Source: a virus (taxonomy: Duplodnaviria; Heunggongvirae; Uroviricota; Caudoviricetes). From it: 17,580 nucleotides of DNA. Shown here in pieces: positions 5,414-6,401 of the stretch. The position numbers and the translations under genes were made by a program. The stretch is from the IMG/VR virus record IMGVR_UViG_2563366883_000005, positions 1 through 17,580 of that record; one strand, 5' to 3'. How positions within the stretch are numbered: the stretch's first letter is position 1; the number at the start of each line of letters is the position of its first letter. The notes beneath the pieces are model-generated. The model made no database searches. It worked only from the letters and a program-made list of their open reading frames with translations, and had not been told where the DNA came from.

Positions 5414-6328
5414 TCAGTAGCGATGCAGTGAAGGCGGCAACTCTTTGTTCTTAAGCCTTTCCCATGCCAGAAGGTTCGTCGGCCCGTCAGGCTCATAAAT
5501 ATCTATATCCCGCGTGTGATTAATTAAAACGCCCCTCGCCCTCCCGATGGTATACGAGAACTCATAGCCGTAGTCGTGGCATATGCCGGAATAGCCAGAC
5601 TGAATCAGTTTTAATGCGGGATACAACTCACGGAACAATGCCTGTGAGCGGTTAGCATAATCCCATAGCCATACAAGGCTGTCTGTTTCTTTTGCGGAAA
5701 GCTCGTTGGTGCTCTTCTCTTGTTTGCCGATTAACTCTCCTTCAAGCGGAACGCGAGCAGCAAGTGACAGAGCTTCGGTAAACTGCTCCTCGCTGATTTC
5801 TTTGTACGAACATCCAAAATGTGATTTCAGTGACGACCACATGGTGATCATCGCCTTCGCCTGTTTTTCCTTTGGCAGAGACTGACCGCGACTCATGACG
5901 AGTTGTTTAATGGCTTCCTGCTGTTCAGTAGTGATTTTCCCCGGCAACGCCTTTTTAGCTTTCAGTGTATTTCCGTAAGACCCCGTTTTACGAATGGATG
6001 GCAAAACTTCAGCTGTCACCCATTTGCGGAATTTGTGCGGGACTGAACCTTTATTGACGGCATCGCGGCAACGCAGAACCAATGTATACATACCTGATTC
6101 GCTCACAATGCTTAAATTCTGCTCACCACCAAGGGTGTAACTTAAAGTTACTCCCTTTTCATCGTCATCAAGTGCAGTAAGCGCCTTGCGTGAGTTAGTC
6201 AGATTTAAAGCATCACAAACATCTTTTGCTACAAACCACGGCTCACCGCACTTGTTGATGACGCGGATTTCACTGTCGCCGAATTTGAAGATGGTGAAAT
6301 CGTTTTGTGCCTTTGCTATACTTTTCAT
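5414..6328 (-). CDS. ant: Antirepressor, Bro-N/AntA-type N-terminal domain (P22 Ant-like)
   Basis: 304 aa. N-terminal Bro-N signature ([54 protein letters not shown]). Lies directly downstream of a small RHH gene and opposite an Mnt homologue, the P22 immI gene order. Confidence 0.8.
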
Positions 6329-6401
6329 GTCAATATTTCCTAATCCGATTTGTTGATACCGAAGCCCTGACTGTTACAGCAGTTGGGGCTTCAACTTTTT
6401 A
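6329..6401 (+). ncRNA. Candidate sar-like antisense RNA covering the ant translation initiation region
   Basis: Plus-strand extended -10 (TGcTATACT, 6314..6322) inside the first codons of ant. About 70 nt downstream is a plus-strand hairpin (GAAGCCC...GGGCTTC, 6361..6392) followed by CTTTTTA. Same geometry and size as P22 sar (established knowledge). No expression data. Confidence 0.3.

Follow-up and report, generated by a model that had tools for sequence, protein, structure and literature searches.

An element of about 70 nucleotides on the plus strand of the window (the whole 17 580-nucleotide stretch of DNA that was analysed) is very probably the sar gene of a P22-type immI cassette inserted between the tail genes L and K of a lambda-like Escherichia coli prophage. 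In the proposed mechanism, RNA polymerase would start at an extended −10 element that lies within the first few ant codons but on the strand opposite to that gene, and would synthesize an RNA of about 70 nt from G6329 that stops at a 14 bp hairpin and U-run near 6398. This RNA would be perfectly complementary to the arc–ant intercistronic leader, with the ant Shine–Dalgarno sequence (SD) facing the loop of the first hairpin. Pairing with the arc–ant mRNA would block ribosome binding, so that Ant would not be made despite the presence of its mRNA, and sar together with the Arc-like and Mnt-like repressors would keep the antirepressor off in the lysogen and in late infection. The element, which carries no annotation, belongs to a known family of RNAs and lies in a regulatory module that is likewise known; its mechanism is an ordinary one. 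The uncertainty that remains concerns expression and not the identity of the element.

A preliminary description had proposed that a sar-like antisense RNA, at 6329..6400, covers the ribosome-binding site of ant. A match to Rfam family RF00262, an in-register alignment with P22 and the neighbouring immI genes all argue for that proposal, and the P22 alignment would place the RNA from 6329 to near 6398.

The insert between L and K

The window derives from a lambda-like siphovirus prophage of E. coli. Positions 5300–7500 are 100% identical to the SCU-106 chromosome and 99.7% identical to phages PhiR12_1, PhiR12_4 and PhiR12_5. The tail operon lies on the minus strand in the order tape measure, M, L, K, I, J, and L is separated from K by a 2.1 kb insert that holds a mnt-like gene, a ClpP-like ORF, an arc-like gene and ant. 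The following features were assigned.

260–3841, minus strand: tail gene J
4044–4724, minus strand: tail gene I
4622–5359, minus strand: tail gene K (JAB and NlpC/P60)
5373–5395, minus strand: terminator hairpin after ant, ACCCAGC-TTCG-GCTGGGT followed by TTTTT (read from the sequence)
5414–6328, minus strand: ant, encoding an antirepressor of 304 aa, the putative sar target (Pfam Bro-N and P22_AR_C)
6391–6531, minus strand: arc-like ribbon-helix-helix repressor gene, 46 aa (Pfam Arc, 49 bits; 141-nt CDS in RefSeq)
6564–6591, minus strand: Pant-like promoter of arc–ant, TTGACT-16 nt-TAGTAT (promoter scan)
6544, 6565, 6601 and 6619: four copies of a TGCTACACCGTG-like 12-mer flanking the Pant-like promoter (repeat finder)
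6642–6890, plus strand: mnt-like repressor gene, 82 aa, divergent from arc–ant (Pfam Arc domain; CDS in RefSeq)
6890–7426, plus strand: ClpP-like ORF, 178 aa (Pfam CLP_protease, 44.9 bits)
7474–7457, minus strand: terminator hairpin directly after L (terminator scan)
7483–8181, minus strand: tail gene L (Pfam Phage_tail_L)
9748–10089, minus strand: tail gene M
10082–13324, minus strand: tape-measure gene

As judged from its genes, the insert is a P22-type immunity-I (immI) module. Pfam, BLASTP and gene order identify two divergently transcribed ribbon-helix-helix repressors, one Arc-like and one Mnt-like, and place ant downstream of arc. In BLASTP comparisons, the arc-like product shares 43% identity with P22 Arc and the mnt-like product, along the whole of its length, 33% with P22 Mnt. 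Ant is 61% identical to P22 Ant in its C-terminal 171 residues; its N-terminal Bro-N domain bears no relation to the N-terminus of the P22 protein. The module sits between L and K and not at a late-operon site upstream of the tailspike of a P22-like podovirus, a location that is context and not a functional requirement. The SD of ant, AGGAAA, is found at 6341–6336 on the minus strand (the complement of 6336–6341), 7 nt before the ATG at 6328–6326, and both lie under or directly beside sar.

The promoter at 6564–6591 is assigned as Pant from its position, and position likewise makes the TGCTACACCGTG-like 12-mers candidate Arc/Mnt operators. These 12-mers fall within 6541–6642, around the divergent Pant and Pmnt; they are partly inverted repeats and are unlike the P22 operators.

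The arc–ant genes are oriented as the tail genes are. The hairpin at 5373–5395 immediately precedes the SD and start codon of K, at the downstream boundary of the insert; the terminator scan did not list it (as 5395–5373), and the identical hairpin was listed in the Stx2a_WGPS6 locus (L004). Since the insert is bracketed by two strong minus-strand terminators, expression of K, I and J must need antiterminated read-through or an internal promoter. We infer that transcription of the late operon must cross the module to reach these genes.

The ClpP-like ORF begins at the mnt stop codon and accompanies this mnt/arc type in other phages; it was also observed, at 98–100% amino-acid identity, in other viral contigs whose immI modules adjoin P22-type tailspikes. 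A separate insert between M and L carries a full-length OmpC-like porin gene (8378–9541, minus strand; Pfam Porin_1, 465 bits; 'porin OmpC' in RefSeq), and in PhiR12_1 M and L are adjacent and the porin gene is absent.

The predicted RNA and its fold

The RNA and its two stem-loops are placed as follows.

6329–6398, plus strand: predicted sar RNA of about 70 nt (Rfam and P22 alignment)
6329–6357, plus strand: stem-loop I, in which 6329–6335 pairs with 6351–6357 over 7 bp, two of them G–U (MFE fold)
6361–6400, plus strand: stem-loop II, an intrinsic terminator with a 14 bp stem (6361–6392) and the loop UACA, followed by AAC and UUUUU (6396–6400)

An Rfam scan of the whole window returned a single match, sar (RF00262), at 6330–6396 on the plus strand. 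The match extends over model positions 1–68 of 68 and scores 69.4 bits against a gathering score of 43 (E = 6.9e-13). The window aligns without any offset with the promoter, the RNA (70 nt) and the terminator of sar as annotated in the RefSeq record of P22. Taking the misc_RNA of P22 (L002:1517–1586) as a guide, the 5′ end of sar would be G6329, directly after the CAT at 6326–6328, and the 3′ end would lie in the U-run at 6396–6400, probably near 6398. Nucleotide identity between the window and P22 is 83% at 6313–6398, above what the flanking proteins suggest. The predicted RNA thus placed covers the SD of ant, abuts the ant start codon and spans the arc–ant intercistronic region.

The MFE of 6329–6401 is −29.8 kcal/mol (z = −6.8), and none of 200 shuffled sequences folded as well. 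Two stem-loops are obtained, the second of which is by its fold a rho-independent terminator. The loop of stem-loop I holds the anti-Shine–Dalgarno motif (anti-SD) UUUCCU (6336–6341). Half of the 14 pairs of stem II (7/14) are G–C, AACTTTTTAG follows directly on its 3′ side and its sequence is the same as that of P22. Owing to its G–U pairs, stem II is stable on the plus strand alone. On the DNA, CTTTTTA occupies 6395–6401, and the stop codon and last three codons of arc (6391–6402) lie under the end of stem II and the T-run, so that the 3′ end of arc overlaps the sar terminator by about 8 nt. The hairpin, the CTTTTTA and their overlap with the last arc codons had been correctly located in the preliminary description, which also put the hairpin about 70 nt downstream of the −10 element; it starts 39 nt and ends about 70 nt after that element, and 70 nt is the length of the RNA and not the distance to the hairpin. 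A consensus scan gave three terminator-like sites with 2.1 expected, which is not beyond chance. The Rfam match, the z-score of the fold and the identity with P22 exceed chance by a wide margin, which the consensus scans by themselves do not.

The promoter

One promoter was assigned to the element.

6294–6322, plus strand: Psar-like promoter with −35 GTGAAA (6294–6299), a 17-nt spacer, TG (6314–6315) and −10 TATACT (6317–6322) (promoter scan)

This site matches the consensus at nine of 12 positions and has the TG; its −35 is weak (4/6). The −10 region TGcTATACT reads at 6314–6322 on the plus strand, inside the first codons of ant as originally described, and is the complement of ant codons 3–5; at the level of sequence, it is a Psar-like promoter convergent with Pant. 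In P22, the activity of Psar requires convergent transcription from Pant. By consensus scan alone, promoter-like sites in this region are at the level of chance (three, with 3.8 expected). The in-register 'sar promoter' of the P22 RefSeq record (L002:1482–1510) reads GTGTTA-17-TATACT against GTGAAA-17-TATACT in the window. The TTGCTATACT block is identical in the two, the CAT that complements the ant ATG is conserved and an invariant TTGCTA-A-T...CAT block is common to both. Among 66 distinct sequences from other phages, nearly all keep the extended −10, TTGCTAnnnT, and one has TTCGCTACAAT. The spacing from the promoter to CAT is fixed in nearly all variants, though the ant genes are of several 5′-end types, and the motif is kept even where the N-terminus of Ant is unrelated.

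Coding constraint was considered as the source of this conservation and was rejected: the overlap amounts to only five ant and three arc codons, and the 62-nt core is intergenic.

Comparison of sar variants

The variant set was assembled by searching IMG/VR and reference genomes for the 3′ arm of the terminator, with the addition of BLAST-matched loci. The 5′ arm of the hairpin was also found at 119 loci, among which 57 sar sequences are distinct. Covariation was not counted on a MAFFT alignment of 20 variants, because MAFFT set the 3′ arm of stem I one column off between the P22 and window types; each sequence was folded separately instead. All 20 folded representatives have a 5′-terminal hairpin, a spacer of 2–4 nt and a terminator hairpin, and the anti-SD in the loop of hairpin I is UUCCU or CUCC across them. 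Stem I occurs in at least five sequences, all of which pair: GUCAAUA/UGUUGAU, GUUGGU/ACUGAC, GUCGU/ACGAU, GUCGA/UUGAC and AUCAAUA/UGUUGAU. In all 21 variants compared, the plus strand folds more stably than its complement, with a mean difference of 9.5 kcal/mol. The difference is due to the 3–6 G–U pairs of each structure, which become A–C mismatches on the opposite strand. This uniform bias towards the plus strand implies that it is the sar strand, rather than the ant leader, on which the structure is selected.

The loci were chosen by an exact 17-mer of stem II and this stem therefore looks invariant by construction; the evidence for covariation in stem II is confined to the Stx-phage variant described below and Salmonella phage SPN3UB, the sar of which passes Rfam at 48 bits. 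The 17-mer GCAGTTGGGGCTTCAAC was scanned against one genome per species (596 Gb, both strands) and gave 103 matches, with about 70 expected by chance. The 5′ arm was also present only in the matches from Pectobacterium odoriferum and Tatumella terrea, and the scan says little about the taxonomic range beyond the Enterobacterales.

The sar terminator hairpin was observed to be a mosaic junction: four types of stem I and ant side are each joined to 4–9 arc-side sequences (loci L112–L229). The sar loop variants assort with both the ant and the arc sides. This pattern suggests repeated recombination within the conserved 32-bp stem.

The same pattern bears on a different reading of the locus, in which the hairpin is a mere structural or recombination boundary or a promoterless terminator, TGcTATACT is due to chance or coding, and no discrete antisense RNA is made. 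Its attraction is that the hairpin clearly is a mosaic junction and that promoter-like sites are no commoner here than chance allows, but it leaves unexplained why TGnTAnnnT and its fixed distance to CAT and hairpin I are kept in nearly all variants. Protein-coding constraint cannot account for the motif, as it is kept across Ant proteins with non-homologous N-termini. The same bases are moreover the experimentally defined Psar of P22 according to the RefSeq annotation, and the G–U pairs favour the plus strand in every one of the 21 variants. We consider a boundary lacking an RNA very improbable, and a transcribed sar gene is the reading retained here.

A role that joins both aspects can also be conceived, in which the sar of a resident prophage silences the ant of another phage in trans and the hairpin serves as a linker for homologous recombination. 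The terminator hairpin is identical in many variants and stem I is sometimes nearly so, as between this prophage and the O157:H7 and Kapi1 copies, which makes trans silencing of another phage's ant possible; for the two roles together we would nevertheless call the case unlikely. If it were true, sar acting in trans would, in polylysogens, connect lambda-like siphoviruses with P22-like podoviruses through their secondary immunity, and the invariant hairpin would shuffle ant-side and arc-side modules, or the whole cassette, between the two phage types.

Distribution of sar loci

The 119 sar loci comprise 74 beside a P22-type tailspike head-binding domain, 12 beside lambda-type K and/or L and 33 that could not be placed; with 12 of 119, the K/L site is a recurrent minority. 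A 121-nt sar region was matched in 849 of 5426 complete E. coli genomes, O157:H7 included. In an evenly spaced sample of those matches, about one third were a 97.2%-identical copy, mostly from O157:H7. Two O157:H7 copies were checked and both have sar between L and K of a prophage that carries nleL; further E. coli carry sar beside a tailspike.

The O157:H7 site lies in a truncated prophage in which the tail genes end after K and are followed by nleL, and the annotated arc differs by strain (150 versus 111 nt). These two observations would fit an inactive relic, that is, an immI module that is the decaying cargo of a defective prophage with a homologous sar that no longer regulates. Against this, arc, ant, mnt and all of the tail genes in the window are intact ORFs, the sar region 6280–6420 recurs at 100% identity in the deposited genomes of phages PhiR12_1, PhiR12_4 and PhiR12_5, and the 2.2 kb module is conserved at 99.4–100% in 11 E. 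coli genomes and three phage records. We give the relic explanation very little credence and continue to regard the element as a probable regulator of ant.

The RNA is annotated in the records of P22 and epsilon34; an RNA annotation at sar is absent from every E. coli, lambda-like or Stx phage record examined. The preliminary description knew of no such RNA from a lambda-type tail operon. That is true of the literature searched, in which no description of sar or immI in such an operon was found, although this is weak evidence as subscription journals are mostly outside its coverage; it does not hold for the sequence databases, where the arrangement is common. The single account of the 'ant moron' that was found, in PMC2629481, deals with P22-like phages. 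The presence of sar at L/K is thus common in databases and apparently undiscussed in the literature.

The finding has a value for annotation, as the sar RNA gene is missing from the E. coli, lambda-like and Stx phage records examined even though it scores above the Rfam threshold. It also shows that the entire secondary-immunity circuit of P22, made up of Mnt, Arc, Ant and sar, moves as a single cassette between the late operons of podoviruses and siphoviruses. Transfer of the cassette bears on prophage induction and on cross-talk in polylysogenic pathogens; no new mechanism is involved.

Comparison with known systems

The c4 antisense RNA of the phage P1/P7 immI region is likewise a small RNA that prevents synthesis of the Ant antirepressor in a secondary immunity region. 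It is processed from the transcript of its own target and pairs with upstream sites, unlike a convergent cis-antisense RNA. The element described here is unrelated to c4 in sequence, and the window has no Rfam c4 match.

A divergent sar-like element occupies the same L/K site in the Stx phages 1717, 2851, YYZ-2008 and Stx2a_WGPS6. Its layout is that of the window, with TGcTAAACT, CAT, hairpin I, a 14-bp hairpin II and a U-run, and its fold has a z-score of −6.2. Stem II differs from that of P22 at five pairs, three of which are two-sided compensatory changes that keep the helix. RF00262 does not report the Stx-phage element at E < 0.01. An L/K immI module with the divergent element is present in 21 phage records in all; JLK-2012 and phi330 also have it, and in Stx2a_WGPS6 it lies at 4039–4110 of locus L004. 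The ant gene of the Stx phages starts upstream in RefSeq, overlapping arc, and is probably annotated as too long.

Closer relatives are the sar copies of Kapi1, a P22-like podovirus of E. coli, and of the O157:H7 NleL prophage, which share 97–98% nucleotide identity with the window over the sar region. The O157:H7 copy also lies between L and K, whereas that of Kapi1 is beside the tailspike. No RNA annotation of either copy was found in the records examined. The O157:H7 copy differs in having about 190 extra bases between the sar terminator and arc, with a 40-aa ORF. A similar extra segment of about 190 bases was seen in the NU14 variant, and the 40-aa ORF, on the minus strand, is unannotated (L006 4102–4302, O157:H7 strain 1130). 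The annotated length of arc varies among O157:H7 strains, being 150 or 111 nt.

A well-studied relative is P22 sar (RF00262). It is established that P22 sar pairs with the ant ribosome-binding site and represses translation (Liao et al. 1987; Wu et al. 1987; Schaefer & McClure 1997; cited in PMC2629481 and PMC13397905). The two elements are alike in the antisense position between arc and ant, in a promoter within the start of the ant coding sequence and a terminator located at the arc 3′ end, in the length of about 70 nt and the same two-hairpin fold, and in the partner genes arc, ant and mnt. They differ in setting, as the P22 module is upstream of the tailspike gene and that of the window separates L from K in the tail operon of a lambda-like siphovirus, and in the Bro-N N-terminal domain of the window Ant, which P22 Ant does not have. 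Within the RNA itself, the sequence of stem I differs by compensatory changes (7 bp in the window and 6 bp in P22), the anti-SD is UUUCCU rather than CUCC, the U-run has five U rather than three and the overlap with arc is about 8 nt rather than 2 nt.
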